Virus record (IMG/VR): IMGVR_UViG_3300047586_000083 | Location: 1 to 62,866 of that record | Origin: a virus | DNA: 62,866 bases | Strand: one strand, 5' to 3' | Part shown: piece after piece, positions 1-62,866 of the stretch | How positions within the stretch are numbered: the stretch's first letter is position 1 | How the letters are laid out: each line of letters begins with the position of its first letter | The notes under the pieces: generated by a model | Seen by the model: the letters and a program-made list of their open reading frames with translations, nothing else | Told to the model about the DNA's origin: nothing | The model's database searches: none | Translations under genes and position numbers: made by a program

Positions 1-127
1 AATACTCGCAGACACCTTGTCGGCAACATTCGAGGACATCATGGTGCGCAATCAGCGCAAGCTGCGCGCCCGGTACCACGATGCCGAATTTCACCGCGAC
101 ATGGCCGTGACGCGGGACTTGCCGACA
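1..127. repeat. Exact 127-nt duplication of the window end (62740-62866). It is an assembly overlap indicating a circular or terminally redundant genome
   Basis: Base-by-base comparison: aatactcgcagacaccttgtcggcaac...gcgggacttgccgaca is present at both ends. Confidence 0.95.
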
Positions 128-157
128 GAACGCGCCCGGCTGGAGGCATCAGAGTAA
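1..157 (+). CDS. MazG-like NTP pyrophosphohydrolase, C-terminal end (continues ORF 62339..62866 across the junction)
   Basis: Codon phase at 62866 continues at nt 128. Reads ...RNQRKLRARYHDAEFHRDMAVTRDLPTERARLEASE, stop TAA 155-157. Confidence 0.7.
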   Translation, partial: ILADTLSATFEDIMVRNQRKLRARYHDAEFHRDMAVTRDLPTERARLEASE

Positions 158-158
158 C

Positions 159-461
159 ATGCTCATTACTGAGGAACTTCAAGAGGCATTAGCCACCAAC
201 ATTGAACGGGATGCCGTTTATAAGGACGGCTGGCGGACGCATGCCCTCGTGATGCTGGCGCTGTTCCCTGAAGGGATACCGGCCCGGACGATGGAAGAGA
301 TGGCGCGGTTTGGATTCCTGTCCATGATCGTGACTAAGTTGGTGCGGTATTGTACATTCATGCCGCATCCCGATTCCATTCACGATCTTGGCGTATACGC
401 CTTCATGCTCGAACACCTAGACAAAGAGGCATCCGTCAATGCCGCACCCTCTGCAACGTGA
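159..461 (+). CDS. Small all-alpha protein, MazG-related / DUF6378-like (tentative)
   Basis: 100 aa. ATG lies 1 nt after the previous stop. Motif IVTKLVRY..HPDSIHDLGVYAFMLEHL resembles the K..R...D..D...Y helix pair of MazG-type phage proteins. Confidence 0.45.
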   Translation: MLITEELQEALATNIERDAVYKDGWRTHALVMLALFPEGIPARTMEEMARFGFLSMIVTKLVRYCTFMPHPDSIHDLGVYAFMLEHLDKEASVNAAPSAT

Positions 462-464
462 CCT

Positions 465-668
465 ATGACCTTCCAGCAAAATTCAGTCAAGCGGGATTGC
501 GCCATATGTGTGAAGCCAATCCTGCCTGGATTCTGGATGCTGGATCTATTCCGGCAGGCGTCCGCTAAGGAAGCGGCAACGGAACGGGTGGAATGGGTGC
601 ACGAGAGTTGCGCGCGGGCCGCTATCGAAGCGTGGCTGAAGAAGAAACGAGAGAAGGCTGCCAAATGA
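465..668 (+). CDS. Hypothetical small protein with CxxC
   Basis: 67 aa, 'RDCAICVKP', basic C-terminus. Packed between neighbours; its stop overlaps the next ATG (ATGA). Confidence 0.5.
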   Translation: MTFQQNSVKRDCAICVKPILPGFWMLDLFRQASAKEAATERVEWVHESCARAAIEAWLKKKREKAAK

Positions 669-1201
669 TAGTTATCGACAATGAAACAACTCACCTAACC
701 GTACCAGAGGCAGCACCAATTGAACAGCAACCGTCCGTCACGGAGTTTGCCGCCATCCGGTTGGATGATAAGACACTAAAGGAAGTCAACAGGATGCAAT
801 TCCTGTGTGACCCTCGGGTTCCCATCCCACCCGAGAGTATCGCCATTACTGGGATCACCAATGAGATGGTCAAGGGCCGTCCGCCATTCTCCGCTTTCTT
901 CCCTGCCCTGGTGGATTACTTTTTGGGAGAGCGGACGGTGGCAGCGCACAATCTGTCCTTTGACATCGCGGTCCTGCGCCATGAGATCAACCGCCTAGGC
1001 CGGGTCACTGCTTTCCCCTGGCCACCTGTACAGATTTGTACTGTGGAACGAACAATCAACCTGAAGGGTCATCGGCTGAACCTCGGTGACTTACACCTGT
1101 TGCTGACTGGAAAGGAACACAAGGACGCGCACCGCGCCATGGCAGATGTGGAGGCACTTTGCCGGGTGATACGGGCGCTCCGAAAGAAAGGCCTGTTATG
1201 A
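665..1201 (+). CDS. DnaQ-like DEDDh 3'-5' exonuclease (copy 1)
   Basis: ExoI 'VIDNETT', ExoII 'AHNLSFDIAVL', ExoIII 'HRAMADVEAL'. Start moved to ATG 665 (MIVIDNETT), which is ATGA-coupled to the upstream gene. Confidence 0.85.
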   Translation: MIVIDNETTHLTVPEAAPIEQQPSVTEFAAIRLDDKTLKEVNRMQFLCDPRVPIPPESIAITGITNEMVKGRPPFSAFFPALVDYFLGERTVAAHNLSFDIAVLRHEINRLGRVTAFPWPPVQICTVERTINLKGHRLNLGDLHLLLTGKEHKDAHRAMADVEALCRVIRALRKKGLL

Positions 1202-1449
1202 CTTTATCCCATGCTGTATATCCAGGCAGTGAGAAACTTGACCTGGGAAGGAAGCGCCCGGCTGTCCTTTGTGAATCATTGGCACAGGCCAATCATATGA
1301 AGACTTTCTGGGGTGAGCATGGCTATGTAGAATTGCTACAGACGCCAATCGAGATTTCACCTGAGCAACTTCAATCGCCAACCAGATTCTGCGAACACGG
1401 AGTCCCAGAAGGTAAGCCGTGTTGTGGATGCGAGATGCTACAACAATGA
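1198..1449 (+). CDS. Hypothetical Cys-rich small protein ending ...EGKPCCGCEMLQQ
   Basis: 83 aa from ATG 1198 (ATGA overlap). Shares the motif EH-x5,6-G-[KQ]-P-C-C-G-C with ORF 2968..3264. Confidence 0.5.
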   Translation: MTLSHAVYPGSEKLDLGRKRPAVLCESLAQANHMKTFWGEHGYVELLQTPIEISPEQLQSPTRFCEHGVPEGKPCCGCEMLQQ

Positions 1450-1748
1450 CACCATCACAACAGATCCGCGACATAGTACCCGTTGTGGCACGCCAACGCC
1501 TAGAGAAGGCCCGGCGTGTTCAGCGCGTTGCCGGCCCGCCAATCATCATCAGCGGCATGGAAGAGCAGCAGATGCTCGCAGCACTCAACCAGGAACCGTT
1601 GACATGGATCATGGCCATTATGACTTACCTCGATGGGCAGGCCGCGCAACGGGATGACTTAGCCAAGATCGTGGCCGGCATCCATGACAGCGTCCTAGAC
1701 CTGGACAGCAAAGTCCAACGGCATCTCGCCAATGAGCACGGACTATGA
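1446..1748 (+). CDS. Hypothetical protein
   Basis: 100 aa from ATG 1446 (ATGA overlap with the previous stop). Stop overlaps the helicase ATG. Confidence 0.5.
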   Translation: MTPSQQIRDIVPVVARQRLEKARRVQRVAGPPIIISGMEEQQMLAALNQEPLTWIMAIMTYLDGQAAQRDDLAKIVAGIHDSVLDLDSKVQRHLANEHGL

Positions 1749-2980
1749 CCCTTACACCGGAGCAGTCCACGGCGCTCGATGCCATCGGGCGCTGGCTTAT
1801 CGGCCCGCGTCAGACCTTCAGCCTGGCCGGTTATGCCGGCACCGGCAAGACCACCTTACTACAGCATTTCATCAACGCCCAGCCGAACATAGTCACCTGC
1901 TGCGCGCCAACCGGCAAGGCCGCCAGCGTGCTACAGAAACGTCTAACCAACGCCAATGTAAGTACCATCCACCGCGCCATCTATACGCCCGTTGCCCCAT
2001 CCATCGCCAAGTTGGAAACCCTAGAGATGGAGTTACTGAATCATCCCAACAATCAGGCGCTCCAAGATGCCATCCGAGAGGAAAAGGCCCGGCTATCTAA
2101 GAAGGATCTGAAGTTCAACCTGAAGCAGGATGTACTCATCTCCCGTGGGCAGCTGGTTGTAATTGACGAGGCATCTATGGTGACGCGCCGGATGCGAAAA
2201 GACTTGGAGGATACTGGCGCTAAGATCCTGTATGTTGGTGACCCAGGGCAGCTGCCTCCAGTCAGGGATGATGGTTTCTTTTCCCATTGCCCACCGGACG
2301 TTATGCTGGTGAAGGTTCAACGGCAGGCGCTCGATTCCCCTATCATTCGCATTTCCATGCAAATTCGGAATGGGGAGGAAGTACCGCCAACCTCCGGGCC
2401 GGGCGCTTTCCGCAAGATGCCTAAGAAGGCGATGCCGGCGCTGGAGTGGCTTGCCTTCGATCAAGTGATCACAGGCAAGAACGATTCACGCCGAAGCGTC
2501 AACCGTTACTTTCGACGGCATGCCGGGCGCGATATGAAATGGCCGCAGGATGGTGACCGGCTGATATGTTTGAAGAATGACCGGGATGCCGATACATACT
2601 TTATCAACGGCATCCAGGCAACCGCCATAAGTAACTTCGATTTCAACCCGGACTTCGGAGAGATTCAAGGTGACATCCTGTATGAAGGTCAAATCATACG
2701 GTCTCATTCATACTACCGCTACCCATTCGCAGCTCATTACGATTATCACATGGAGAATGGCAAGGCCGTCATTGACTGCGAGGAAGACCCGCCACAGTCA
2801 CGGCGCGGGCTGCGTGAGTTTGACTATGCCTATGGGATCACCGTCCATAAGTCACAAGGATCGGAGTGGGGCCGGGTCTTGTTTGCAGATGACCACATGG
2901 CCATGGGCGCGGATGACTACAAGAAATGGCTGTATACCGCTGTAACGCGGGCTAGAGAGGAATTGGTATGGCTTTACTGA
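1745..2980 (+). CDS. SF1 RecD/Dda-like ATP-dependent DNA helicase
   Basis: Walker A 'GYAGTGKTT', Walker B 'VVIDEASMV', 'YVGDPGQLPPV', 'ITVHKSQGSEW', 'YTAVTRAREEL'. Confidence 0.9.
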   Translation: MTLTPEQSTALDAIGRWLIGPRQTFSLAGYAGTGKTTLLQHFINAQPNIVTCCAPTGKAASVLQKRLTNANVSTIHRAIYTPVAPSIAKLETLEMELLNHPNNQALQDAIREEKARLSKKDLKFNLKQDVLISRGQLVVIDEASMVTRRMRKDLEDTGAKILYVGDPGQLPPVRDDGFFSHCPPDVMLVKVQRQALDSPIIRISMQIRNGEEVPPTSGPGAFRKMPKKAMPALEWLAFDQVITGKNDSRRSVNRYFRRHAGRDMKWPQDGDRLICLKNDRDADTYFINGIQATAISNFDFNPDFGEIQGDILYEGQIIRSHSYYRYPFAAHYDYHMENGKAVIDCEEDPPQSRRGLREFDYAYGITVHKSQGSEWGRVLFADDHMAMGADDYKKWLYTAVTRAREELVWLY

Positions 2981-3264
2981 CGGATTCGACAGCATTCTCA
3001 ACAACCTTATACGCAGAACACGATAGCAAGGGCCAACCTTGCTGTGGTTGCGTTGAGGTTCTCATCAACAAACAAACCGGGCGCTGCCTGATGCTCTGTA
3101 ACGAGTGCGGAGCGGAGATGGGCGCAGGCACCGAACGAACAACGAAAGATGACCCGGACGGATTCTGGAAACAGCAGGAGCGAGTACCGGAGAGCACCCG
3201 AGTATTCTGGAATGGTGGAGCGTATGTCACAAGTGAATCCCATAATGGGCCGGTCATCCTTTGA
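2968..3264 (+). CDS. Hypothetical Cys-rich (zinc-ribbon-like) protein
   Basis: 98 aa, 'SKGQPCCGCVEVLINKQTGRCLMLCNECG'. Overlaps the helicase stop and the radical-SAM start. Confidence 0.5.
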   Translation: MALLTDSTAFSTTLYAEHDSKGQPCCGCVEVLINKQTGRCLMLCNECGAEMGAGTERTTKDDPDGFWKQQERVPESTRVFWNGGAYVTSESHNGPVIL

Positions 3265-3964
3265 CCTTTCGATCATGTACAGCCGTGAATGCAATCTTCA
3301 TTGCCTTCATTGTATGTACAGCGCCGGGCCGGATATGCATGACCAATTGGACCTAGATGCACTGCGCCGTTTCATTACCACATGGGATTGGCGCGTGAAC
3401 TCTGTAGGGTTCTATGGCGGAGAAGTTACTCTCCAACTGGCTGCGTATAAGTCCATTTGCGATATGCTTCCAGCGGGACTCCAACGATGGATGTTCAGTA
3501 ATGGTACTTGGTCCGCAGGACCATCAGAGCGAATCCACGAAGTCATTCAATGGACTATTGATAATCGAGTTTCACCCATCATCGTAAGTGGGACCCGTTA
3601 TCACCAGCCATATCAGGATTGGGCGGTGCTAGAGAGTCTGGCGCGAACCTGGCCTGAGCACATCTGGCTCAAGGCTGACGAAGGTCACTATCTACCAATG
3701 GGACGGTTGGCTGGGCTGATGCCATTCTCCTGTAAGCGCCGTTGCGAGACAGACGCCCGGCCCATGCGGATCGCAGTACAACCGGACGGGTCCGTGATCT
3801 TTCAGACCTGTGACGGGCGGTATCCTGTGATTGGCGACATAACGGCAGGCTTCCCAGAACTAGCAGACCGTTGCACGGGTGTCCGCGAGAATTATTGCCG
3901 TGCGGCGGAGGTTGGTGACTTTGACGCTATGGATGGGACGGTGGACAGTGAAACCCTCGCCTAA
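3224..3964 (+). CDS. Radical SAM enzyme with a C-terminal twitch/SPASM-like Cys region
   Basis: 'RECNLHCLHCMY' (CxxxCxxC), 'FYGGEVTL' (GGE SAM motif), C-terminal 'RCETDARPMRIAVQPDGSVIFQTCDGRYPVIGDI...C...C'. Start chosen at ATG 3224 (GGTGGAG 5 nt upstream); 3212 and 3245 are also possible. Confidence 0.8.
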   Translation: MSQVNPIMGRSSFDLSIMYSRECNLHCLHCMYSAGPDMHDQLDLDALRRFITTWDWRVNSVGFYGGEVTLQLAAYKSICDMLPAGLQRWMFSNGTWSAGPSERIHEVIQWTIDNRVSPIIVSGTRYHQPYQDWAVLESLARTWPEHIWLKADEGHYLPMGRLAGLMPFSCKRRCETDARPMRIAVQPDGSVIFQTCDGRYPVIGDITAGFPELADRCTGVRENYCRAAEVGDFDAMDGTVDSETLA

Positions 3965-4292
3965 GCGCCAGCCCGCTGTCCGGGTGCCGCCCGCCCGCGA
4001 CTGGCAGCAGGAAGCCATCGACTGCGGCAAACGGCAAGCCATCATCCAGGCCGCCAATCTTCGCAATCACGGGCGCTATCGGGTTGGGGACTTTGTCCGT
4101 GTACTCTCGGAGGTAAGCGCCTATTACCTGCTCATTGGCCGGGTGGTAGAGATCACCCGTTTCAATGACAGCGGTATAATCGAGTTTACAGACGCCATGC
4201 TACAAAGCGCCCGCAATCCTGAACAAGTAACCAGCGCCAAGCGCCGGGTGCACTTCTATTGGCGCATGCTGCAAGAGGTAATCGTATGCTGA
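3933..4292 (+). CDS. Hypothetical protein
   Basis: 119 aa from the internal ATG 3933 of ORF 3879..4292. Overlaps the radical-SAM 3' end. Start uncertain. Confidence 0.4.
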   Translation: MGRWTVKPSPKRQPAVRVPPARDWQQEAIDCGKRQAIIQAANLRNHGRYRVGDFVRVLSEVSAYYLLIGRVVEITRFNDSGIIEFTDAMLQSARNPEQVTSAKRRVHFYWRMLQEVIVC

Positions 4293-4501
4293 AACAATTC
4301 GGGTTGTTCTTTCAACGGTCATACAACTGGTTCCACTATGGCGGATTCCAAGAATGGCTGTACCGCGTTCCCGGTTATCCCAAACGTTGCTTTGTCTGTG
4401 GCCATTGGTACTGGTTGCGCGACGGTCACAAATACTGGGATGAGGCTGCTGACTCTATGTGTAGTGATGAGTGCCAGCGCCAATACTTCAGGATACTCTA
4501 A
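4286..4501 (+). CDS. Hypothetical zinc-finger protein (FCS-like)
   Basis: 71 aa, 'RCFVCGHWYW...SMCSDECQRQY'. ATG 4286 overlaps the previous stop. Confidence 0.5.
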   Translation: MLKQFGLFFQRSYNWFHYGGFQEWLYRVPGYPKRCFVCGHWYWLRDGHKYWDEAADSMCSDECQRQYFRIL

Positions 4502-4731
4502 TGCCTACGACAACCAGAAAGATCATCCTACCTGACTTGGCGAAAGAGTATTATGACGTCAAGCAGGCCTATGCCTTTCTCGCCACTCCGGTGCCCGAAG
4601 GATACCGGCGCTGGATATGTCTGCTGTGTGGATTCCCGGCAGACTTTCGCGCCACCTGCGATTGGGTTGGTGCCGTCTGCTGTGGAGGGTGTGGACAAAG
4701 TTGCGTCCGTCCCATTGAAGAATGGAAGTGA
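4501..4731 (+). CDS. Hypothetical Cys-rich protein
   Basis: 76 aa, 'WICLLCGF...ATCDWVGAVCCGGCGQSC'. TAATG overlap with the previous gene. Confidence 0.5.
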   Translation: MPTTTRKIILPDLAKEYYDVKQAYAFLATPVPEGYRRWICLLCGFPADFRATCDWVGAVCCGGCGQSCVRPIEEWK

Positions 4732-4744
4732 AAGGAGTTAGGTC

Positions 4745-5044
4745 ATGCAAGTTGGAACATATAAGGCATTACACTTCGGAGGTTTTGAAAATGGAACCCC
4801 ACCAAGATCCAAGACCATTCCAAAGATCAAGGCCCTAGCAGACGCGCCGGAAACCAGTCAAGAGTTGAACCCGCTGCTAGCAATGGGCCGTCTGATGCTG
4901 GATCATCAATTGGTTGGAGAGAAGCTGCGCAGTTTGCATCTTGACCCGGATGCCTACCACGGCAATTTACAAGTGGTCTCTACCACGTTGAGTTGGATGC
5001 GAACTTTGATCACAATGATGATAGAGCAATGTGAAGGAAAATGA
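4745..5044 (+). CDS. Hypothetical protein
   Basis: 99 aa, strong SD AAAGGAG 7 nt upstream, ATGA overlap with dnaE. Confidence 0.55.
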   Translation: MQVGTYKALHFGGFENGTPPRSKTIPKIKALADAPETSQELNPLLAMGRLMLDHQLVGEKLRSLHLDPDAYHGNLQVVSTTLSWMRTLITMMIEQCEGK

Positions 5045-7878
5045 TCAACCTACGGGTCCGAACTGAATACACCTTCAGCGGCGCTTACGGCCCGCTGCCG
5101 AAGGTCTTGGCCGCAGTGCGGGATGCGCCGTCAGTTGGAATTGCAGACCGCCATGGCACCTGGGGCCACGTTGCTTTCAGCAAAGCCTGTAAGAAGGCCG
5201 GCAAGCAGCCGATCTTTGGCGTTGAATTGGGCGTGGTATCCGTCCTAGAGCGAGAGCGCCACCCGTCTAACTGGATGGCCTTCTTAGCCCGGACTGATGC
5301 CGGATTGCAGGAGTTATATGAACTGGTCACCGAGTCAACAACAGATGACCATTTCTATTACCACCCACGCATCGACTACAAACGCTTATCAGCAGTCACA
5401 GACAATCTCATCATCCTTTCCGGCACCAACCCTATCTGGGACCGTCTTCCCAAGCGCCAAAAGAACCTATATGTGGAACTTGCCCCCAGTAGTCAGCCTG
5501 CTGCGGTAGAGTGGGCACGCGCCAACCGCCGTCCGCTTGTGGCTACCTCGGACAACTATTATCCCGCGTTCGAGAACCGGGCGGTGTACGAGATCATTGC
5601 CGGCCGCAACCGGGACTCCCGTACCACGCCCATGCACATCCTGGACCGCTGGGAATGGCTTAACTATTGGCCGGGTCAGACGGCTGCCCTGGACATGACG
5701 CGGGCGCTGGCAGCGGAGTGCCGCGCCGTCATCCCCCAGGCCAAGATGGTCAAGTACCATAGCAAGCAGACCCTGGAGCAGATGTGCCGCGCCGCAGCGC
5801 CCGCGCGTGGGATCAATCTCAAAGACCCGGTATACAAGGCCCGGTTGAGGAGAGAGTTAGACCTGATCACAGAAAAGGATTTTGATGACTACTTCTTTGT
5901 GATCGCGGACATGCTGCGGTACGCCAAACAGCATATGCTGGTTGGCCCGGCACGCGGTAGCAGTTGCGGTTCGCTGGTTTGCTATCTTCTATCCATCACA
6001 GAGATTGATCCAATTCCATTCAGCCTCATCTTTGAACGTTTCATTGACATCAACCGTAAGGATCTGCCCGACATAGACATTGACTTTCCTGATGACCGGC
6101 GCGAGATGGTGTTTGAGTATATCCGGCAGAAGTATGGCGTGGATTGTGTTGCCCGCCTAGGCACCATCATGCGTTACAAGGCCAAGAGTGCCATTGACGT
6201 TGTGGCAATATCCTTGAAGATTCCCATTGGGGAAGTGGAGAATTTGAAGGGTGCCATCATTGAACGTAGCGGTGGTGACGCGCGGGCCGCTTTCTGTATT
6301 CTGGATACCTTCAATGAGTTGGAAGTGGGGAAGACTATGCTGGCTAAGTATCCCCATTTGCGTGTGGCTGCGGACATCGAGATGCACGCCCGTGGTACTG
6401 GGCAGCACGCAGCCGGCATCGTCATTACTGCTGAACCCATCAGCAAGTTCTGCTCTCGCAATATGCAGACGGGCGCCATCATGGTGGACAAATATGATGC
6501 TGAGGCAGTCAACCTTCTCAAGATAGACGCCCTAGGGTTGCGCACTCTCTCGGTCATTCAAGATTGTCTTGACCAGATAGGTCAATCGCGGGAATGGTTG
6601 ATGAAGCGCCCGTTGGGTGATGAGGATGCGTTCGATGTCATCAACAACAGTAGGTTCGCGGGCATCTTCCAATTCGAGGGATATGCGCTGCAATCCCTCT
6701 GTCAGCAGATGAAGATTGAGGACTTTGAAGACATCGCATCCCTAGGCGCTTTGGCCCGGCCTGGGCCGCTGAACTCGGGTGGTGCGAATGAATTTGTTAA
6801 GCGCCGTACCGGACAAGTGCCAGTGACCTATCTACATCCACTATGCAAGGAGATGACCAAGGTGACTTATGGCGTGGTCATCTATCAGGAACAGGTCATG
6901 CAGATCGGGCGCGTGGTGGGGCAATTGTCCTGGGAGGATGTGAGTGAACTCCGAAAGGCAATGGCAAAGTCAAAGGGCCAGGAGTTTTTTGACCAATACT
7001 GGAACAAGTTCCGGGCCGGTGCTCTCGCTCAGGGAGTAACGGAAGAGGATGCCAACCAGATCTGGAAAAACATCAATACCATGGGCAGCTGGTCCTTCAA
7101 CCGGAGTCACGCCGTATCCTACGGGATGGTTACTTACTGGTGTATGGTGCTGAAAGCCCACTACCCATTGGAATGGGCCACGGCCTGTCTTCGCCATGCC
7201 TCAGGCGCGGATCAATGTGTCAAGCTGCTACGTGAGTTGGACTCGGAAGGTTACAAGTACAAGGACTTCAACATACAACGGAGTGAGATCAATTGGTCAG
7301 TGAAGGATGGCTTATTGATTGGCGGACTTCTGAATGTAGATGGAGTTGGCCCGAGCAAGGCTGAGGGCATAATGGAGCGCCGAAGGGCCGGGCGTCCGCT
7401 TACTCCCGCCATGCAGAAGAAACTAGAGGCAGCCGTTACTCCGTTCAGTTATGAGAAGGTGTTTGAGTGTCGAGTAAGGTTTGGTGATCTTCTGAAGAAT
7501 CCATCCCGGTACAACATCTCATCCAAGATTTGGCGCCTATCAGACATCACCAGCGAGATGGAAGGTGAATTTGTCTTTCTCGGGAAAATGGTCAAGAAGG
7601 ATTTGCGTGACCTGAATGAACCTCTCTTCCTACAGAAGCGTGGCGGGCGCTATGAGACGGGCCAGACCCTTTTCTTGAACATGACTGTGGAGGATGATAC
7701 CGCCAGCATTCTTCTATCTGTGAACAAAAGGGATTATTTGGACATTGGTAAGCCACTAGTGGAGACGGGCCGGATTGGTGAATGGTACTTGTGGAAGGGC
7801 TGGATGCGGCGCGGGTTCCGAAAGGTTTATGTGAAACGATGCTGGCCGGAATCGCGTTTCAACACTCCAGTGGAATAA
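5041..7878 (+). CDS. dnaE: DNA polymerase III alpha subunit (DnaE-type C-family replicase), compact 945-aa form
   Basis: N-terminal PHP region; 'LVGPARGSSCGSLVCYLLSITEIDP', 'DIDIDF', 'KIDALGLRTLS', 'ALARPGP', 'YQEQVMQI', 'SHAVSYG'. Confidence 0.9.
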   Translation: MINLRVRTEYTFSGAYGPLPKVLAAVRDAPSVGIADRHGTWGHVAFSKACKKAGKQPIFGVELGVVSVLERERHPSNWMAFLARTDAGLQELYELVTESTTDDHFYYHPRIDYKRLSAVTDNLIILSGTNPIWDRLPKRQKNLYVELAPSSQPAAVEWARANRRPLVATSDNYYPAFENRAVYEIIAGRNRDSRTTPMHILDRWEWLNYWPGQTAALDMTRALAAECRAVIPQAKMVKYHSKQTLEQMCRAAAPARGINLKDPVYKARLRRELDLITEKDFDDYFFVIADMLRYAKQHMLVGPARGSSCGSLVCYLLSITEIDPIPFSLIFERFIDINRKDLPDIDIDFPDDRREMVFEYIRQKYGVDCVARLGTIMRYKAKSAIDVVAISLKIPIGEVENLKGAIIERSGGDARAAFCILDTFNELEVGKTMLAKYPHLRVAADIEMHARGTGQHAAGIVITAEPISKFCSRNMQTGAIMVDKYDAEAVNLLKIDALGLRTLSVIQDCLDQIGQSREWLMKRPLGDEDAFDVINNSRFAGIFQFEGYALQSLCQQMKIEDFEDIASLGALARPGPLNSGGANEFVKRRTGQVPVTYLHPLCKEMTKVTYGVVIYQEQVMQIGRVVGQLSWEDVSELRKAMAKSKGQEFFDQYWNKFRAGALAQGVTEEDANQIWKNINTMGSWSFNRSHAVSYGMVTYWCMVLKAHYPLEWATACLRHASGADQCVKLLRELDSEGYKYKDFNIQRSEINWSVKDGLLIGGLLNVDGVGPSKAEGIMERRRAGRPLTPAMQKKLEAAVTPFSYEKVFECRVRFGDLLKNPSRYNISSKIWRLSDITSEMEGEFVFLGKMVKKDLRDLNEPLFLQKRGGRYETGQTLFLNMTVEDDTASILLSVNKRDYLDIGKPLVETGRIGEWYLWKGWMRRGFRKVYVKRCWPESRFNTPVE

Positions 7879-7997
7879 TTATTTTCGCTTTCATTTCATA
7901 TGCTTGCGCCATTGTTCAGAAGTCCAGTGTAGACTCTTGTACTGAACAGGGTCCATAATGGGAAGTGCCGGAAACGCCGGCAAGGGAAAGGAACCCA

Positions 7998-8606
7998 ATG
8001 GGCAATAAACTGAGCAGTTTTGTAAAAGGCCTGAAGACGCCCGACATCCTGGCGCTCTACAATTTGGCCAACTACCCGGAAACACCTGTCAAGAGATTTG
8101 CCACGCGCATGGCAGCAGAAGCCCGCTTGGTGCGGGTTATGGCCGTTGACCCGGCCTACTTCTATAAGCGATTGGCAGCGCCTGCCGCAAAGCTGAACAT
8201 CCATCTCCCGGTGCCCGAGGGCGCCACCCCACGCAAGCCCGCCGCACCTGCTGTGGTTCCCGTGTCGAAGCGCCCGGCCATCGATGTAATCACGGATGCT
8301 GCCGACAAGAAGGCGCTCCAGGCCATCGAAGCGGAGGGAAGGCCCGCCGCGCCCAAGCCCGCCGCGCCCGCCGTCAGGGCCCACGCGCTGGCCAAGGAAG
8401 AGAGCGCCCAAGCTGACGCGCGGGAAGGGAAGGCCAAGAAGAAACAGATCACCTCACCCCATCTCAACCTCCGTTGCCCGGAGTGCGGATACTACGCCAA
8501 GTCCACAATGGTGTACCTGGCCATCGCCCGGCTGGCATGCCCGGTATCGCCCAAGCACGGCCCGCTGCTGACGGCGGATGAACGTGGAGAGAAGAGAGGG
8601 CGCTAG
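7998..8606 (+). CDS. Hypothetical protein with an Ala/Pro-rich linker and a C-terminal zinc ribbon
   Basis: 202 aa from ATG 7998 (GGAAAGGAA upstream). 'PAAPKPAAPAV' low complexity; 'LRCPECGYY...ACPVSPKHG'. Confidence 0.5.
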   Translation: MGNKLSSFVKGLKTPDILALYNLANYPETPVKRFATRMAAEARLVRVMAVDPAYFYKRLAAPAAKLNIHLPVPEGATPRKPAAPAVVPVSKRPAIDVITDAADKKALQAIEAEGRPAAPKPAAPAVRAHALAKEESAQADAREGKAKKKQITSPHLNLRCPECGYYAKSTMVYLAIARLACPVSPKHGPLLTADERGEKRGR

Positions 8607-8858
8607 ATGAATCGCAAGCCATTCCCGAGCAAGGTCAATTGGCGGGCGCTATGGCGCCACCGCTGGGTGCTGCTGAACTTCTTGAACCAGGTGGCCTATG
8701 GCCGGTTTGAGGACACCTGCCTCATCGTTGGTCACTACAGTGGGACCAACTCATTTGCGCGCCTGCTGTATAAGGCTGCAACGGACGTTATCCAAGTAGA
8801 ATCCAAACCAAACTTCCGGCCCGTTCGGAAGAGCATCAGCCCAAGGAGGGTACGTTAG
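8607..8858 (+). CDS. Hypothetical protein
   Basis: 83 aa, ATG directly after the previous TAG. Confidence 0.45.
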   Translation: MNRKPFPSKVNWRALWRHRWVLLNFLNQVAYGRFEDTCLIVGHYSGTNSFARLLYKAATDVIQVESKPNFRPVRKSISPRRVR

Positions 8859-9334
8859 TGGCCAAGAAACTATCCCGAGCAAAGCGCCGTGACGCGGCAA
8901 CTGCTACGTTGCGAACTACCGCCGAAAGCGCCCGCGACATCGCGGCATCAATCCAAGCGGAAACCAACCCCACCATCGAGTTCATGAAGACCGTAGCAGC
9001 CCGCGTTGCGGCGCTCGATGTGGACACGAGCGAGTTGGATGAACTCAAGGGTGAGATCGAGTATTGGCGCGACAGCATCCCTGAGAACCTTCAAGGTGGC
9101 GACAAGTACAGCACGCTGGATGATACCGCCAACGCGCTGGAGAGCGCCATTGATGAACTCGAAACCATCGAAGTACCGGAGTTCACGGTGCCGGACCCGG
9201 AGGATGAAGAGAAGGTCAAGGCCGCTAAGGACGCCCTGGCGGAGTTGCCGGAAGTCCTAGAAGCGCTGGCGGACGGTATCGAAGTCCAAGCGGACGAAGC
9301 GGACAATGCCGAGTTTCCGGGCATGATGGGCTAA
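8858..9334 (+). CDS. Hypothetical acidic helical protein
   Basis: 158 aa, GTG start with SD AAGGAGGG 7 nt upstream. Asp/Glu-rich C-terminal half. Confidence 0.55.
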   Translation: MAKKLSRAKRRDAATATLRTTAESARDIAASIQAETNPTIEFMKTVAARVAALDVDTSELDELKGEIEYWRDSIPENLQGGDKYSTLDDTANALESAIDELETIEVPEFTVPDPEDEEKVKAAKDALAELPEVLEALADGIEVQADEADNAEFPGMMG

Positions 9335-19344: not shown

Positions 19345-19818
19345 ATGGCAAAGGGAAGCGAGAAACGGCTGGTGTGGGACCCGCTTAGAAAAGAATTGAA
19401 CATTCTTCGTTGGCACTACCAACGCCTAGAGGACAAACTCACCGTAGGGATACCGGATGTAAATATCCATGTGCCCGGTCAAGGCGACATATGGGTGGAG
19501 ATGAAATACATCCAGCATGCTGCGCGGCAGCCCCAGGATGCGGTTGAGATTGGCCTGAGCAGGGAGCAGTACATCTGGATGATGGAAGGCCAGAAGGCCG
19601 GGCGTGTCTGTTACCTTCTTGCCCGGATCGGGATAACAGGTTGGTACTTGTGGGATGACGCGCTGGGATGGGTGTTGGCGAAGAAACCTGCGCCATGGCG
19701 GGCGCTCTCGCGCACTGCTGTGTGGCAAGCTACGCCTGCGGCTGTACTGGGATACTTAGCCTCACCGGGCAATCTTCCGCAATTGGGCAACCGTCCGGGT
19801 CAACGCAGATTCCTCTAG
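19345..19818 (+). CDS. VRR-NUC / PD-(D/E)XK nuclease
   Basis: 'GIPDVNIHVPGQGDIWVEMKY...LSREQYIWM...GRVCYLLAR' fits the D...E-x-K core and the VRR-NUC layout. Confidence 0.65.
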   Translation: MAKGSEKRLVWDPLRKELNILRWHYQRLEDKLTVGIPDVNIHVPGQGDIWVEMKYIQHAARQPQDAVEIGLSREQYIWMMEGQKAGRVCYLLARIGITGWYLWDDALGWVLAKKPAPWRALSRTAVWQATPAAVLGYLASPGNLPQLGNRPGQRRFL

Positions 19819-20317
19819 CCCGGCATTGAGCCAAACGTGCCGCGCAACTCTGTGGGTGGAAGGCCCGTTCAACCTCTGCCTTGGACATAGATTGAGGTTG
19901 GATGGATTTGATCTTGACCAAGGCATCCACGATAACGGACGGTATGGGGATGCCAACACGAGAGCAATTCTTGATTATGGATACTACTTCCAAGGTGATG
20001 AAATAGGCACTCAGCCATCGCTCGATGTGCAACCCCAGGCCCATAGTCAATTCTGCCTTATACAGCATAAACACCAGAGCAATGATCATGCACTTCTTGA
20101 TACCGCCGCGCGTCCCTACTGAACTGTCCACCTTCTTCTGAAAAAAGGCAGCAGCAAGCCCTGTCGCGAAATCGGCTATGACAAAGCCGGTCAGCAAAAG
20201 AATAGCGTCAGGTATAGTCATCCACCACCCCAAGAGCGCCGTCAGCGTCCATTTCCCTGCATGTAGCAGGTAGGTCTTGAGAAGAGTTAGATCCATTTTG
20301 TTCATCTCCGCCAACAT
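19730..20317 (-). CDS. Holin (Phage_holin_4_1-like) with a Cys-rich C-terminal extension
   Basis: Multi-TM; 'FVIADFATGLAAAFFQKKVDSSVGTRGGIKKCMII'. Tail 'SCAARLAQCRARGICVDPDGCPIAEDCP'. Last gene of the minus arm. Confidence 0.7.
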   Translation of the reverse strand: MLAEMNKMDLTLLKTYLLHAGKWTLTALLGWWMTIPDAILLLTGFVIADFATGLAAAFFQKKVDSSVGTRGGIKKCMIIALVFMLYKAELTMGLGLHIERWLSAYFITLEVVSIIKNCSRVGIPIPSVIVDALVKIKSIQPQSMSKAEVERAFHPQSCAARLAQCRARGICVDPDGCPIAEDCPVRLSIPVQPQA

Positions 20318-51831: not shown

Positions 51832-52500
51832 CTACGCCACTAACACCGGCACTGGCGCCGCTTCCAGCACATCCCAATTGAATGCCGGCCCGATGTCGAA
51901 TTTGTCCGAGCGAACGTTGGCATGTGTAAGGATACCGCGAAACTCACCAACACCCTCGGGCAAGAACTGAAGGCGCTTCTCAACTGGAAGCATCACTCGT
52001 GGTATGTCATTCCTCTCCAGTATTCCATCCACAAGCGCCCGCAACGCTTCCATCTGAACGTCAGGGAACGTAGCAAAATACTCAAAGCTACGCCACAGCG
52101 CAACCTTCTTATACTTCGCCGTTTCCGAGATACCGCAGTATGATTGCTGCCAATTCTTAGGCCACCAATACAACTTCTCACCCACCCGCTTCAATGGGCC
52201 TACGTTGACCACTTCTATCCCAATGGTCTTCTGATCCCAATGGCTATTGGTCCAACCTTCGCTCTTCAACCCAAGATGATACGCCCACTGCGTCTCTGAG
52301 AATGCCTCACAAATAGCGCCGTCCGTGCCCAGTATGTAACTGGTGCCTACTCGCTCAGGCGTCCGCGCCCACTCATTATAGGCACCATCGATGTTGCCGC
52401 CAGCAGTGAAATGGAGGAATACTGCTACCTTCTTAGTGACTGTGGTATAGAACTGCCCGGCTGGAAGATTCCGTTTTTGTATGTCCAGTATCATGGCCAT
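51832..52500 (-). CDS. N-acetylmuramoyl-L-alanine amidase endolysin (Amidase_2/PGRP-type)
   Basis: 'VFLHFTAGG', 'AYHLG', 'GIEVVNVG'. The start may be ATG 52494 (GAGG 7 nt upstream). Confidence 0.75.
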   Translation of the reverse strand: MAMILDIQKRNLPAGQFYTTVTKKVAVFLHFTAGGNIDGAYNEWARTPERVGTSYILGTDGAICEAFSETQWAYHLGLKSEGWTNSHWDQKTIGIEVVNVGPLKRVGEKLYWWPKNWQQSYCGISETAKYKKVALWRSFEYFATFPDVQMEALRALVDGILERNDIPRVMLPVEKRLQFLPEGVGEFRGILTHANVRSDKFDIGPAFNWDVLEAAPVPVLVA

Positions 52501-59046: not shown

Positions 59047-59274
59047 ATGAGCCATACCATCATCACCGCCCATCAGCATGGGTTCCGTCCTGGTGACGTT
59101 GTGCGTATTACCGGCATCGCAGGCAAGCCCGCGTCCTATCGCGTCACGGCTGTTCAAGATCACCGGATGACCCTGCGGCCCGCCCGCTGGTACGTTAGAC
59201 TATGGGGAGCGGTACGGCGGGCCGGGCGCTGGTTGCGGCGCATGGCCAACCACCTGCGGGAGATTGGGAAATGA
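59047..59274 (+). CDS. Hypothetical small basic protein
   Basis: 75 aa, SD GGAGG 5 nt upstream. Confidence 0.5.
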   Translation: MSHTIITAHQHGFRPGDVVRITGIAGKPASYRVTAVQDHRMTLRPARWYVRLWGAVRRAGRWLRRMANHLREIGK

Positions 59275-60251
59275 ACAATTACAAGCACGTCATTGTTGGC
59301 GCCGGTATCGGCGGGCTATCGTTCGCCGCAGAATTGAAGCGGATGGGCTGTAATGACTTTGTCATCCTGGAACGTCAGCCGGACATCCCTTTCAACCTCT
59401 ACAACGGAGTCCACTATCTTCACGGCATTGACTTCGTTACACCCTTTCCATTCAACTTCGTGGAAGTCCCGAGCACCGAGCAGATCTGGAATCCCAAGCG
59501 GGATGAGTTCAAGGACCGCGCCAGCCTGCCCGAGATGCTGGAGTATTCCCTCAAGTTGATGAACATTCGTCATACTTCGGCAATCATGCATCCCGGCAAC
59601 CGTATGTGGCCCACCTATCTGCCGGAGAGTCACGACCTGAATGACCTTCTGCGCGCCTATCGGGATTACATCGGCTTTGTCCATTTCCAATTCAACGCGC
59701 CAGTGGCATGGATCAACCCGGAAGGGCGGTTGCTGGAAGCGGGAACCCGAACGCAGTACAGTTACCAGCATATGGTAACTACTATGCCGCTGGACTTCCT
59801 TCGGGAACTAACGCCAACGCTTTCCCCCACCCTCCAAGGAATCACCTTCCAGAAACGCGCCATCCACATCACCAACTACATTACCACTGGAATAGTGCGC
59901 AATTGGCGCATTCAGTTGTATGTGGCTGATGCTCAGTTTCCTGTCTATCGCATTACGGTTCTGAACGGCATCCTCTCGATGGAATCCCTGCAGGCGCTCT
60001 CTGTCGAGGATGAAGTTATCATCCGGTACCATCTCCAACGCTACTTTGAGTATGAACTCAGTAGCAAGTCCACCTATATCTGGCCAACTGGCCGGATCTG
60101 GGGCATCACCAAAGAGGAACGCCGAACGATAACTGCAGAACTGGCCACTGCTGGTATCTATCCACTAGGAAGATTTGGCCAATGGGATGGCAAGATGAAC
60201 ATGGACACTACCATCCAATCAGCAATCCAACTCGCAAAGGAAATGGCATGA
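59271..60251 (+). CDS. FAD/NAD(P)-binding flavoprotein (UDP-galactopyranose mutase / amine-oxidase-like fold)
   Basis: 'HVIVGAGIGGLSFAAEL' dinucleotide fold. C-terminal 'GRFGQWDGKMNMDTTIQSAIQLA'. ATGA coupling. Confidence 0.6.
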   Translation: MNNYKHVIVGAGIGGLSFAAELKRMGCNDFVILERQPDIPFNLYNGVHYLHGIDFVTPFPFNFVEVPSTEQIWNPKRDEFKDRASLPEMLEYSLKLMNIRHTSAIMHPGNRMWPTYLPESHDLNDLLRAYRDYIGFVHFQFNAPVAWINPEGRLLEAGTRTQYSYQHMVTTMPLDFLRELTPTLSPTLQGITFQKRAIHITNYITTGIVRNWRIQLYVADAQFPVYRITVLNGILSMESLQALSVEDEVIIRYHLQRYFEYELSSKSTYIWPTGRIWGITKEERRTITAELATAGIYPLGRFGQWDGKMNMDTTIQSAIQLAKEMA

Positions 60252-61081
60252 ACATAAGACTGATCACATACACACCGCAGCCGGAAAAGTCAATTGCCGC
60301 TGCGATGCTCAATATGGGAATTGGGTTTGACTGTACGGATCTTGACCAGATTTCGGATGCTCAAGCCCAAGACGCGCTGCGGGAGATATTCGCCAGTCAC
60401 CTAGACGCGCCGCTGGAATACGCCAGCTTCAACTTCTTTTGGGAAGACATCCCGCTATTCCTCCGGGCGCACCTGGTACGGCATCGCGTGGGGTGGGGCT
60501 TTGCGGAACGTTCGCTGCGGTTCTATGATGCCAATCTGCGGAACCCGGTTGAGCATTTTGACTTTGCCGCCATCCCTACGGTACGGGATGTGCCGGCCCG
60601 GAACCCGGTGCTGGGCGGGCGCTCGATTGCCTCTCTCTTCCATTCCGAGATGGAACGGCAGATGGAATTTTACCGCCTGATGCTGGAGGAAGGTATCGAC
60701 CAGCAGGACGCCCGCACCCTCATTGGCACCTGGTATCCCACGGCCATGCAGACAACCTGCACCTATCGGGCGCTTAGGGCTATGCTTGCTGACCGGCTGA
60801 GCAGTCAGGCGCATCCCTTCTGGCAGCAGGCAGCCCTCCAGATCAAGGCCCTAGTCACCCGTGTAGCGCCCGCCCTAGGCGCGGCCCTGGTAGACTCGTG
60901 CGAGATACACCAACGGTGCGTTTGGAACTCCCGGTTGGATCGGCAATGCGATGCCTGCGTGGCGAGAGGTAGAAAGAAGGCCCATGAACATATCTGGGAC
61001 CGCGCCACTACGCTTGGCGAGAATACCCAATGCGCCTGCGGCACGATGCGACCCAAGCTGCTATCGGACGGAAGGCGGTGA
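60248..61081 (+). CDS. thyX: ThyX-like flavin-dependent thymidylate synthase homologue with a Cys-rich C-terminal tail
   Basis: 'APLEYASFNF', 'LRAHLVRHRVGWGFAERSLRFY' (RHR-x8-S-x-R-F). Tail 'CEIHQRC...CDAC...CAC'. Confidence 0.55.
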   Translation: MNIRLITYTPQPEKSIAAAMLNMGIGFDCTDLDQISDAQAQDALREIFASHLDAPLEYASFNFFWEDIPLFLRAHLVRHRVGWGFAERSLRFYDANLRNPVEHFDFAAIPTVRDVPARNPVLGGRSIASLFHSEMERQMEFYRLMLEEGIDQQDARTLIGTWYPTAMQTTCTYRALRAMLADRLSSQAHPFWQQAALQIKALVTRVAPALGAALVDSCEIHQRCVWNSRLDRQCDACVARGRKKAHEHIWDRATTLGENTQCACGTMRPKLLSDGRR

Positions 61082-61566
61082 CCATTGTGATTCCTCAAGT
61101 ATTGGAAACGCACCAAACGTTCGCTCTCAACCTTCGGCCTGCGGCCGGCATCCTAGACATGGACGGCTGCTTGACGGAATGCATACCGGGTTTGTTCATG
61201 AACTGGGATGACATCGCAGAAAGCACGCACATCATGAATGCCTCTCCACCCAACCACCCGCTACTGAACTTGACACGCGTGCTACTCGGGTCAAGACGGC
61301 TGACGGTGATTGTGATGACGGCGCGGCCTGAGCGATACAGGTTGATTACTGTGGAATGGCTTCAACGGTATGGCGTGGTGCCGGACTTCCTACTGATGCG
61401 GGCGAATGATGATGTGCGGCCCGATAAGGAAGTCAAGCGGAGTCACCTGGTGGCCATTCGAGAGCATCATGACATCTGGTTCTCTGTCGAGGATCGGGCT
61501 GGCGTGGTAAAGATGTGGCGCGAGGAAGGCATCACTTGCCTCCAATGCGCAGAAGGGAACTATTGA
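61078..61566 (+). CDS. HAD-superfamily phosphatase / nucleotidase
   Basis: GTG 61078 (GTGA overlap, GGAAGG upstream). 'ILDMDGCL', 'VIVMTARPE', 'K...', 'SVEDRAGVV'. Confidence 0.6.
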   Translation: MTIVIPQVLETHQTFALNLRPAAGILDMDGCLTECIPGLFMNWDDIAESTHIMNASPPNHPLLNLTRVLLGSRRLTVIVMTARPERYRLITVEWLQRYGVVPDFLLMRANDDVRPDKEVKRSHLVAIREHHDIWFSVEDRAGVVKMWREEGITCLQCAEGNY

Positions 61567-61567
61567 C

Positions 61568-62104
61568 ATGGACAGAATCAATCAGGTGGATGTGTCCACC
61601 CTGTATTACTGCATCGGCACGCTTTGCTTTGGCTGTCGAAATGGCATTGACGTTCATCCAAATGGATCAGGCGGATTGGTGCATGATAATGGGTATGGCA
61701 TGTGCTCCTTGGCGCTCCTAAGAGAGGCACAGCCGCAGGCATTCGCGGATCACCAGAAGATTGCCCGCTACAACGCCAAGGCAATAGTGCCCTCCGTCCT
61801 TCAGCAACCTACACCCGAGTATCAAGAGGATCAGCGGGCCATCTGGGCATGTGTCATCGAGGATATGCGACACCGGGATGCCTTCGGCGCTCGGAAGTAT
61901 GGCACCCGGCTGCAAGCCTTCAATGGGCGTGACCCCATCATCGATGCCTATCAGGAAGCCTTGGACCTGGTGGTGTACCTGAAGCAGTTGTTCATAGAAC
62001 GCGCCAGGGCAATTAGGCTGCTAGAGGGTTTGACTATTGCAGAACCTGACAGCAGAAGCCGTGCCATCGACCTTGTCCTAAACATTCTGAAGGGAACCCA
62101 ATGA
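61568..62104 (+). CDS. Protein with a C-terminal MazG-related (dATP/dGTP pyrophosphohydrolase-like) helical domain
   Basis: 'MRHRDAFGARKYGTRLQAFNGRDPIIDAYQEALDLVVYLKQL'. N-terminal Cys-containing region. Confidence 0.5.
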   Translation: MDRINQVDVSTLYYCIGTLCFGCRNGIDVHPNGSGGLVHDNGYGMCSLALLREAQPQAFADHQKIARYNAKAIVPSVLQQPTPEYQEDQRAIWACVIEDMRHRDAFGARKYGTRLQAFNGRDPIIDAYQEALDLVVYLKQLFIERARAIRLLEGLTIAEPDSRSRAIDLVLNILKGTQ

Positions 62105-62358: not shown

Positions 62359-62866
62359 ATATTCCATCGGTGCGCTCCGAACCGAGTCACCCGTGACACC
62401 GGAGATGGTCGCCCGATTCACAGACCCAGAGACGGCGGTGCTGTTTCTTTCCGCCATTCAGGCCATCATCACCCAGGGCCAGGAAATGGACAAGTTGAAA
62501 AAGCACTTGTTCTATGAGAAACCGCTCCCAACCTTCGGCAGCCGGCAGCATTGGGTAGCGCCCGCCGTCCTAGAGCGCCTAAGCAATCCGGGCGTCATCC
62601 GGCTGCTCCATGCCGCCATCGGGCTGGTAACCGAGTCAGCAGAGCTATTCGAGATGCTGTATGCGCATGTGGTTGAAGATGAGAAGTTAGACCCGTTCCA
62701 TTTGATCGAGGAAGCGGGCGATCAGTTCTGGTACCTCGCAATACTCGCAGACACCTTGTCGGCAACATTCGAGGACATCATGGTGCGCAATCAGCGCAAG
62801 CTGCGCGCCCGGTACCACGATGCCGAATTTCACCGCGACATGGCCGTGACGCGGGACTTGCCGACA
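62339..62866 (+). CDS. MazG-like NTP pyrophosphohydrolase (N-terminal 176 codons; continues at nt 128-157; 185 aa in total)
   Basis: 'LVTESAELFE', 'HLIEEAGDQFWYLAILAD', 'IMVRNQRKLRARY'. The ORF is open at the window end. Confidence 0.7.
   Translation, partial: MRITNAEYSIGALRTESPVTPEMVARFTDPETAVLFLSAIQAIITQGQEMDKLKKHLFYEKPLPTFGSRQHWVAPAVLERLSNPGVIRLLHAAIGLVTESAELFEMLYAHVVEDEKLDPFHLIEEAGDQFWYLAILADTLSATFEDIMVRNQRKLRARYHDAEFHRDMAVTRDLPT
62740..62866. repeat. Second copy of the 127-nt terminal duplication
   Basis: Identical to nt 1-127. Confidence 0.95.

Follow-up and report, generated by a model that had tools for sequence, protein, structure and literature searches.

A gene on a viral genome of 62,866 nucleotides (IMG/VR record IMGVR_UViG_3300047586_000083, referred to at its full length as the window) encodes a protein which, judged by its sequence and its predicted structure, is a radical S-adenosylmethionine (SAM) enzyme belonging to the EpeE-like lineage; its core is reduced, and its C-terminal module is twitch-like with four cysteines. 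The gene is an open reading frame (ORF) of 246 aa at 3224..3964 on the plus strand. It belongs to a branch of the EpeE/YydG lineage that has not been described before and that is carried mostly by phages. A sequence-only reading of the window had called this ORF a radical SAM enzyme from its CNLHCLHC and GGE motifs and had described its architecture as maturase-like. Both proposals were borne out: the frame is open throughout, the two motifs are invariant in the 34 family members aligned, and the nearest characterised relative is the peptide-modifying enzyme EpeE (YydG), which has an extended twitch domain. The same frame extends upstream to 3149, giving the longest ORF. However, the three closest relatives (61-68% identity, beginning MSQVNP... 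or MATVNS...) start at the residue equivalent to 3224, and for this reason 3224 is taken as the correct start.

Similarity to EpeE

By every measure, the nearest characterised relative of the phage protein is EpeE (YydG), an epimerase from B. subtilis that acts on a peptide made by ribosomes and modified after translation (RiPP). The structures of EpeE are PDB entries 8AI1-8AI6, and its family is TIGR04078. A phmmer search matched the phage protein to EpeE with an E-value of 3e-8. When the family profile was compared with the PDB, YydG scored 63 bits (E 2e-16) and every other entry scored 26.5 bits or less. With hhalign, an alignment of EpeE and 20 EpeE-like proteins was matched at a probability of 99.6% (E 1.5e-24), and the 203 aligned columns extend as far as the C-terminal module. 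A Foldseek search with the AlphaFold2 model found EpeE with an E-value of 5.6e-11 and a template modelling (TM) score of 0.69. The next matches were viperin-like enzymes (5e-6, TM 0.54), followed by SuiB, SkfB, anSME, SpeY, MoaA, and BlsE. Since the hhalign probability is so high and the Foldseek match was obtained on a confident model, the similarity to EpeE reflects homology rather than chance.

EpeE holds one auxiliary [4Fe-4S] cluster in an extended twitch ("T-SPASM") domain (PMC13012085), and its Cys223 donates a hydrogen to the Cα radical (PMC13012085; PMC5682303). It lacks an RRE domain, and its activity does not depend on the leader peptide (PMC8326336). The phage protein likewise has no RRE domain. 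Both proteins share the N-terminal CX3CX2C motif, GGE, NGxW, the S...H pair, and the G(R)A loop, and residues P36, S122, H127, and G160 of the phage family are also kept in YydG-like proteins. In the C-terminal part, both have a Cys before a β-hairpin, a Cys after it, and a further Cys downstream. Phage C174 aligns with EpeE C206, and phage C225 aligns with C289, the first Cys of the EpeE CxxC.

The differences are equally clear. The second Cys of that CxxC (C292) is missing in the phage family, which gains an invariant C170 and thereby a CxxxC before the hairpin. A single post-hairpin Cys (C196, followed by Asp197) stands where EpeE has the C222-C223 doublet. The phage protein is ~75 residues shorter and lacks one β-α-β unit of the core, a segment of ~45 aa that is absent from the whole phage family. 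An invariant Arg (R182) occupies the position of EpeE D210, and neither this residue nor the other invariant basic residue, K150, is conserved in YydG-like proteins. Moreover, no EpeX/YydF-like peptide, peptidase, or ABC transporter is found near the phage gene, and the phage family is carried mainly by phages. By its hidden Markov model (HMM) score, its core size, the loss of the CC doublet, and the lack of the operon and cognate peptide, the phage protein falls outside the EpeE family proper. It represents a separate branch within the EpeE-like lineage, reduced in size, and its module is of the twitch-like and not of the SPASM kind.

Core Motifs and Predicted Fold

Conservation was assessed in a family alignment of 34 sequences, down to 23% identity. 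C23, C27, C30, Y32, G62, G65-G66-E67, N93-G94, S122, Q131, K150, G160, C170, C174, R182, P187, and C196 are invariant. C225, W96-S97, M159/R161, and Q194/G198/Y200/P201 are nearly so. In radical SAM enzymes, GGE is the motif that binds the amino and carboxylate groups of SAM; here it comes after a predicted strand (residues 58-63). The EpeE-like alignment keeps the equivalents of NGxW as N82/G83/W85.

The AlphaFold2 model, which was built with the family alignment, has a predicted local distance difference test (pLDDT) value of 90.8 and a predicted TM score (pTM) of 0.87. It consists of ~4 β/α units and a fifth strand, followed by the MGR/CxxxC loop, the β-hairpin, a short strand, and a long helix. 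By Foldseek the fold matches radical SAM structures, but the predicted core is smaller than the partial (β/α)6 TIM barrel. Profile libraries recognized the protein poorly. Pfam Radical_SAM (PF04055) scored 23.2 bits, below its gathering cut-off of 29.5, although many relatives carry a precomputed PF04055 hit. The best NCBIfam model was YydG (TIGR04078), at 34.9 bits against a cut-off of 300, and PHROGs gave a weak match to a generic radical SAM family only.

The C-Terminal Module

The C-terminal module reads, in order, an M159-G160-R161 loop, C170-x3-C174, a β-hairpin (181-185/190-193, with R182, P187, and G189), Q194-x-C196-D197-G198-x-Y200-P201, a helix, and C225. Within it the block R-x-A-x-x-P-x-G-x-I-x-x-Q-x-C-D-G-x-Y-P is conserved across the family. 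The sequence-only reading had singled out residues 173-206 as a twitch/SPASM-like C-terminus. The twitch half of this description stands: the pattern is found as C174-x14-G189-x6-C196, with the hairpin and then C225, the post-hairpin spacing being x6 where the canonical one is x4. The SPASM half does not, as no more than four C-terminal Cys are conserved and Pfam SPASM (PF13186/TIGR04085) gave no hit. When the C-terminal 104 aa alone were compared with the PDB, only chance matches to the "PDG" repeats of β-propellers were returned.

The four conserved C-terminal Cys are presumed to hold one auxiliary [4Fe-4S] cluster. For comparison, the auxiliary ligands of EpeE were taken from invariance in 21 EpeE-like sequences, in which the invariant C-terminal Cys are C206, C222, C289, and C292; C223 is common, not invariant. 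Both MAFFT and hhalign set phage C196 under C223 and Thr195 under C222, a placement which depends on an ambiguous gap of 1-2 residues. Two arrangements may therefore be considered. Either all four Cys would ligate the cluster and there would be no Cys donor, or three would ligate it and C196 would be the donor.

Comparison With Other Radical SAM Enzymes

Twitch enzymes acting on small molecules (BtrN, SpeY/HygY, MoaA, BlsE) also have one auxiliary [4Fe-4S] in a short, hairpin-based C-terminal module, as is predicted here. They too are single polypeptides that need no peptide-recognition domain, and some members of the phage family lie in sugar-nucleotide operons. SpeY, MoaA, and BlsE are among the structural matches, but far weaker than EpeE (E 2e-4 to 9e-4, TM 0.39-0.46). 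No significant full-length sequence match to this group was found, and the Cys spacing differs.

With SPASM RiPP maturases and anSME (SuiB, SkfB, CteB, anSMEcpe) the phage protein shares the radical SAM core and a hairpin-based auxiliary-cluster module, and weak HMM and Foldseek matches to them were obtained. SPASM is a seven-Cys motif (CX9-15GX4C-gap-CX2CX5CX3C-gap-C) that holds two auxiliary clusters, and RiPP maturases usually come with an RRE and adjacent precursor genes. The phage protein differs in having four Cys only, and no Pfam SPASM hit, RRE, or precursor.

To our knowledge, few radical SAM enzymes are known from phages: QueE, NrdG, and an isomerase like spore photoproduct lyase (SPL) for thymidine hypermodification. 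No relevant publication came up when the literature was searched for SPASM/twitch or RiPP-type radical SAM enzymes of phages. QueE, NrdG, and gp53 of phage M6 resemble the present case as phage-encoded radical SAM enzymes among genes of nucleotide and DNA metabolism. M6 gp53 resembles SPL and is encoded in a cluster with 5-hydroxymethyldeoxyuridine (5-hmdU) kinase, aGPT-Pplase, and PLP genes (PMC8989533). Thymidine hypermodification of the gp53 type was considered for the present gene and rejected, as gp53 is SPL-like and its partner genes are absent from this phage genome.

Distribution and Annotation of the Family

A word-indexed search of 5.8 billion proteins returned five relatives, and an exhaustive profile search of 1.84 billion cluster representatives returned 45 at E<1e-30, of which almost none reaches 300 aa. 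These define an unnamed family of proteins of 220-250 aa, mostly on viral contigs. Eleven loci were found in IMG/VR, on viral contigs of ~10 kb to 215 kb. JGI metagenomes gave 99 matches (80 of them taken into the analysis), and the GTDB species genomes yielded three contigs of metagenome-assembled genomes (MAGs) only, from Nanoarchaeota, Uhrbacteria, and Babeliales. For the comparisons below, ~100 loci were grouped into 68 lineages at 75% identity. In 50,697 GenBank phage records, no homologue of the protein was found by tblastn and no match to 12 kb of the window by megablast. BFVD held no close model; the best match (TM 0.53-0.61) was to uncharacterised phage radical SAM/SPASM proteins. The C-terminal extension of one member (P0029) had no match in the PDB.

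Wherever a member has been given a name, it is listed as "hypothetical protein". In nine database entries, including the JGI call for the present gene (window 3224-3316), the protein starts at the conserved Met of a C-M-Y motif (M31) and so loses CxxxCxxC (P0001, P0015-17, P0037, P0045, P0046, P0052, P0053). That gene callers start after the cluster motif is part of the reason why the family has stayed unannotated. In one locus (L002, 530-2600), the radical SAM gene and an adjacent gene for a Cas4-like nuclease are both frameshifted, whereas they are intact in the near-identical L001 and L005. The frameshifts are most likely sequencing or assembly errors rather than signs of pseudogenes. L005, a 214-kb phage, also has a separate radical SAM protein like NrdG or the activase of pyruvate formate-lyase (PFL) (4010-4669), ~3 kb upstream of its family member. 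As one phage carries both enzymes, the two are not redundant.

The family is mostly but not strictly viral, since one member (L106; 235-kb contig Ga0494769_000001, 4563-8711) lies in an archaeal-looking contig, directly downstream of genes for ribosomal proteins L1/L10/P1. FtsZ, IF5A, and an AMP/thymidine-phosphorylase-like gene are nearby, and the contig looks like an archaeal chromosome.

Genomic Context Across Lineages

No neighbour is conserved across the 68 lineages, either by blastp clustering or by phmmer of the window's neighbours against the ORFs of other loci. The commonest neighbour cluster, an SNF2 helicase, occurs in 4 of the 68. None of the window's own neighbours has a relative near any other member in the ~100 loci (blastp; phmmer at E<0.1; clustering). 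The sequence-only reading had proposed looking for the same gene neighbourhood in related phages. It was not found, even in relatives at 61-69% identity, which are flanked by a TSCPD protein, an RtcB fragment, or unrelated ORFs.

A DNA polymerase is encoded no more than five genes away in 8 of the 40 lineages that have at least two genes on each side, and in two loci (L109 and L110) the family gene and the polymerase gene abut or overlap. Other recurring neighbours are a clamp loader, DnaB, SNF2, a Cas4-like nuclease-RecA-primase set, DNA methylases, UDG-PolA, HD/YfbR nucleotidases, RlaP, and RtcB. In four of the 68 lineages, from two separate clades, the family member sits in a nucleotide-sugar operon of tightly overlapping genes (Table 1). 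The partners there are GDP-mannose 4,6-dehydratase, DegT aminotransferase, UDP-GlcNAc 2-epimerase (WecB), NAD-epimerase, GT4 glycosyltransferases, and a B12-binding radical SAM enzyme.

Three further observations concern single lineages. In the closest one (68-69% identity; L003 916-1476 and L026 4798-5358) a stand-alone TSCPD-domain protein is encoded directly upstream. The TSCPD domain is known from class II ribonucleotide reductases (RNRs); in this protein its motif reads AGSIAD and hence is without Cys. A possible DNA-modification cluster was seen upstream of PolA and the family member in L109 (1-8001; SDBV01006536.1). It comprises a second radical SAM/SPASM protein, an NAD-epimerase/dehydratase, a TAGT-family protein, a large N6/N4 DNA methylase, and a UDG-exonuclease fusion. 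The downstream neighbour in L019 had no match in the PDB.

The Phage Genome and Flanking Genes

An exact direct terminal repeat of 127 bp (1-127 = 62740-62866) means that the window is a complete phage genome of ~62,739 bp (62.7 kb) that is either circularly permuted or terminally redundant. Among its products are terminase, portal-like, capsid, holin, and amidase proteins. The replication arm has DnaE, two superfamily 1 (SF1) helicases, SNF2, a prim-pol, two DnaQ-like exonucleases, ThyX, and a PNKP-type phosphatase. The placement of the radical SAM gene between a helicase and DnaE, as described in the sequence-only reading, was confirmed (Table 1).

A Pfam scan covered ~68 ORFs, including every ORF of at least 130 aa. 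At the sensitivity of Pfam, it found no QueC/D/E, FolE, TGT/DpdA, or NrdD/NrdG, in agreement with the reported absence of the usual partner genes, and no PFL-type glycyl-radical enzyme. A promoter and terminator scan of 1..9000 gave counts equal to the shuffled expectation and was uninformative. A nucleotide-metabolism cluster (59202-62104) is close to the radical SAM gene when distance is counted across the genome ends. Within the plus-strand early arm, the holin gene (Phage_holin_4_1) is encoded on the minus strand and at a great distance from the gene for the amidase-type endolysin (positions of this observation, 19730-20317 (-) and 51832-52500 (-)).

Table 1. Positions of the enzyme gene, its motifs, its neighbours, and operons of related loci.
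Feature	Sequence	Positions	Strand	Basis or remark
Putative radical SAM enzyme, minimal, truncated EpeE/YydG-like branch, twitch-like C-terminus	Window	3224..3964	+	ORF, family alignment, hhalign, AlphaFold2, Foldseek
CxxxCxxC motif CNLHCLHC (C23/C27/C30)	Window	3290..3313	+	Invariant in 34 sequences; aligned with EpeE CNASCDHC
GGE motif G65-G66-E67 (in FYGGEV)	Window	3416..3424	+	Invariant in 34 sequences; aligned with EpeE FTGGEVF
N93-G94-T-W96-S97, "NGxW" signature common to all YydG-like proteins	Window	3500..3514	+	N93, G94 invariant; W96, S97 nearly so
Predicted twitch-like C-terminal module	Window	3698..3898	+	Conservation, predicted secondary structure, mapping to EpeE C206, C222/C223, C289
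SF1 (RecD/PIF1-like) helicase, upstream flank	Window	1745..2980	+	Pfam AAA_30 3.5e-24, UvrD_C_2 3.4e-15
Cys-rich ORFan, 98 aa, GQPCCGC...C...CxxC	Window	2968..3264	+	Overlaps enzyme gene start by 41 nt; context, no link to enzyme seen
119-aa ORF, 2 Cys, no Pfam match	Window	3933..4292	+	Overlaps enzyme gene end by 32 nt; context
Small zinc-ribbon-like ORF, 71 aa, CxxC...CxxxC	Window	4286..4501	+	Context
Small zinc-ribbon-like ORF, 76 aa, 7 Cys	Window	4501..4731	+	Context
DnaE-type DNA polymerase III alpha subunit, downstream flank	Window	5041..7878	+	Pfam DNA_pol3_alpha 5e-63, plus finger and PHP domains
FAD/NAD(P)-binding oxidoreductase	Window	59202..60251		Nucleotide-metabolism cluster
ThyX-family protein	Window	60182..61081		Nucleotide-metabolism cluster
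HAD phosphatase, PNKP type	Window	61030..61566		Nucleotide-metabolism cluster
178-aa ORF without assigned function	Window	61568..62104		Nucleotide-metabolism cluster
Nucleotide-sugar operon	L052	3100-10615		
Nucleotide-sugar operon	L063	1-6842		
Nucleotide-sugar operon	L090	482-4536		
Nucleotide-sugar operon	L099	524-5410		

Proposed Mechanism and Candidate Substrates

The motifs and fold suggest a scheme in which C23, C27, and C30 would hold a [4Fe-4S] cluster and SAM would be bound there with the help of GGE. Reduction of the cluster would lead to cleavage of SAM, and the resulting 5'-deoxyadenosyl radical would abstract a hydrogen from the substrate. The shortened twitch-type module could bind its auxiliary [4Fe-4S] through some or all of C170, C174, C196, and C225, and this cluster may serve electron transfer or substrate anchoring. 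With a barrel reduced to ~4 β/α units and one strand, the active site would be very open. Comparative genomics suggests that the enzyme has no dedicated partner gene and may act in trans on a molecule present in any infected cell. A nucleotide, an NDP-sugar, or DNA/RNA during replication would be the preferred class of substrate, and a ribosomal peptide encoded next door an unlikely one. By analogy with EpeE and other twitch enzymes, the chemistry could be epimerisation, dehydrogenation, or related C-H activation.

The evidence on the substrate pulls both ways. We would rank a nucleotide-linked substrate first, followed by a protein or peptide reached in trans and then by a peptide encoded next door; an activase or QueE-like role and a non-catalytic remnant would come last. 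Our tentative preference, held at less than even confidence, is for a stand-alone enzyme that may act on a nucleotide-linked or otherwise ubiquitous non-peptide substrate. A nucleotide-linked substrate is favoured because no precursor is conserved, because members occur in replication and polymerase contexts and, in two clades, in sugar-nucleotide operons, and because the family has gained the invariant basic residues K150 and R182. It is also favoured because viperin-like enzymes, MoaA, BlsE, and SpeY, which act on nucleotides or nucleoside-sugars, are among the structural neighbours.

Several points weigh against this preference. The sole characterised close relative acts on a peptide, and no other single line of evidence is as strong as homology. 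Macromolecular, often protein, substrates are those classically associated with a very open, reduced barrel. Location in a replication module carries little weight in phages, whose early genes are a mixture of many functions. The nucleotide-sugar operons are confined to 4 of the 68 lineages, and the present phage has no sugar genes in the Pfam scan. At least one member comes from a chromosomal contig of archaeal appearance, where ribosomal protein genes adjoin it, and one from a MAG contig of candidate-phyla bacteria. Finally, in the alignments C196 could equally be a cluster ligand or a hydrogen donor like EpeE C223.

Rather less probable, but still to be taken seriously, is EpeE-like chemistry in trans, in which a Cα or side-chain hydrogen would be taken from a host protein or from a phage protein or peptide encoded elsewhere. 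The outcome could be epimerisation if C196 is the donor; without a donor, a stable or cleavage-prone backbone radical or a cross-link could result. A polypeptide substrate is favoured by homology, EpeE being by far the closest relative, and by the openness of the minimal barrel, which would suit a macromolecule. EpeE itself has no RRE and does not depend on a leader, and both aligners place C196 under the donor C223. In EpeE, mutation of C223 leads to breakage of the peptide (PMC8326336), and a donor-less relative could therefore inactivate its target protein. However, no candidate substrate is conserved in any context. The carrier phages are very diverse, from 60 kb to >200 kb and with different polymerases, so that a shared phage protein target is hard to name. 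The change of EpeE D210 to an invariant Arg and the loss of the CC doublet also argue against EpeE-like chemistry, and the nucleotide-sugar operon contexts would be left unexplained.

The sequence-only reading had pointed to a substrate much closer at hand, namely a product of the small ORFs around the gene, which it described as Cys-rich and translationally coupled. The overlaps at both ends of the enzyme gene are real. Richness in Cys fits 2968..3264, 4286..4501, and 4501..4731, and not 3933..4292. It is nevertheless improbable that the enzyme is a RiPP-type maturase of any of these ORFs or of 1198..1449. Tight packing and kinship to RiPP maturases speak for such a role. Moreover, a G(K/Q)PCCGC motif with "EH" in front of it is common to ORFs 1198..1449 and 2968..3264 (identity at 10 of 19 residues; blastp E 2e-4 against a database of very small size). 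The motif may be zinc-binding or due to chance. PCCGC occurs twice in the window and once in L006, ~3 kb from the enzyme gene and out of frame context, and nowhere adjoining the gene in other loci. In other loci, 3 of 20 immediate neighbours have at least 6% Cys, compared with 4% of background genes, but the enrichment is not significant (Mann-Whitney p 0.26) and the Cys-rich neighbours of different loci are not homologous to one another.

The conservation of the family over 68 lineages with invariant active-site residues leads one to expect a conserved substrate. None of the five ORFs has a relative beside other family members, and phmmer found none there for 4286..4501 and 4501..4731 in particular. 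The product of 2968..3264 is an ORFan, with no homologue but itself in 5.8 billion proteins, and relatives at 61-69% identity have unrelated neighbours. The small ORFs have paired CxxC motifs, as zinc ribbons typically do, and zinc ribbons are frequent in the early regions of phages. With the enzyme also outside the EpeE family proper, the proposal that it matures a peptide or protein encoded next door finds no support.

A divergent activase of a glycyl-radical enzyme or RNR, or a QueE-type enzyme of a nucleotide pathway, is very improbable. The small size and N-terminal cluster motif recall PflA and NrdG, the context is one of replication and nucleotide metabolism, and in the closest lineage the TSCPD protein is encoded directly upstream. 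The HMM matches to NrdG are weak, however (NrdG2 21.1 bits against a cut-off of 131; NrdG3 11.8 against 152). The 50 Foldseek matches listed include neither an RNR nor a PFL activase, and QueE gives a marginal match (E 0.054) and is not among the NCBIfam hits, so that the best match to QueE or an RNR activase named beforehand as adverse to a maturase did not appear. The genome has no NrdD, QueC, QueD, or DpdA in the Pfam scan, activases and QueE are without a Cys-ligated twitch module, and the jumbo phage L005 has its separate PFL activase/NrdG-like enzyme besides the family member.

Equally improbable is a decaying or non-catalytic remnant (a structural or regulatory Fe-S protein without radical chemistry): the truncated core, the sub-threshold Pfam score, and frameshifted or truncated database copies (e.g., P0006) would suit it. 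However, none of the SAM-binding and cluster motifs varies among the 34 aligned sequences, although identity falls to 23%, and this indicates that catalysis is under purifying selection. Artefacts of gene calling or sequencing account for the truncated copies, and the AlphaFold2 model is confident.

Significance

A bolder proposal, which we regard as doubtful, is that an EpeE-type lineage was stripped to a minimal core and repurposed by phages as a partner-free single gene that alters a nucleotide, a nucleotide-sugar, or replicating DNA, and that is also found in tiny-genome archaea and candidate-phyla bacteria. If true, it would amount to a new way of producing modified nucleotides or DNA, or else a nucleotide analogue for host takeover or anti-defence. 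If the protein is merely another peptide-modifying enzyme whose target is unidentified, the gain would be modest.

The phage radical SAM enzymes known earlier each revealed a pathway of DNA modification or nucleotide supply. The present family differs in being widespread (~68 lineages, including phages of >200 kb), unannotated, and derived from a peptide-epimerase lineage without a peptide partner. Its scaffold would be among the smallest of the twitch-type radical SAM enzymes and of use in enzymology and engineering. The identity of its substrate could reveal a new phage modification of nucleotides or DNA, or a new means by which phages damage host protein.

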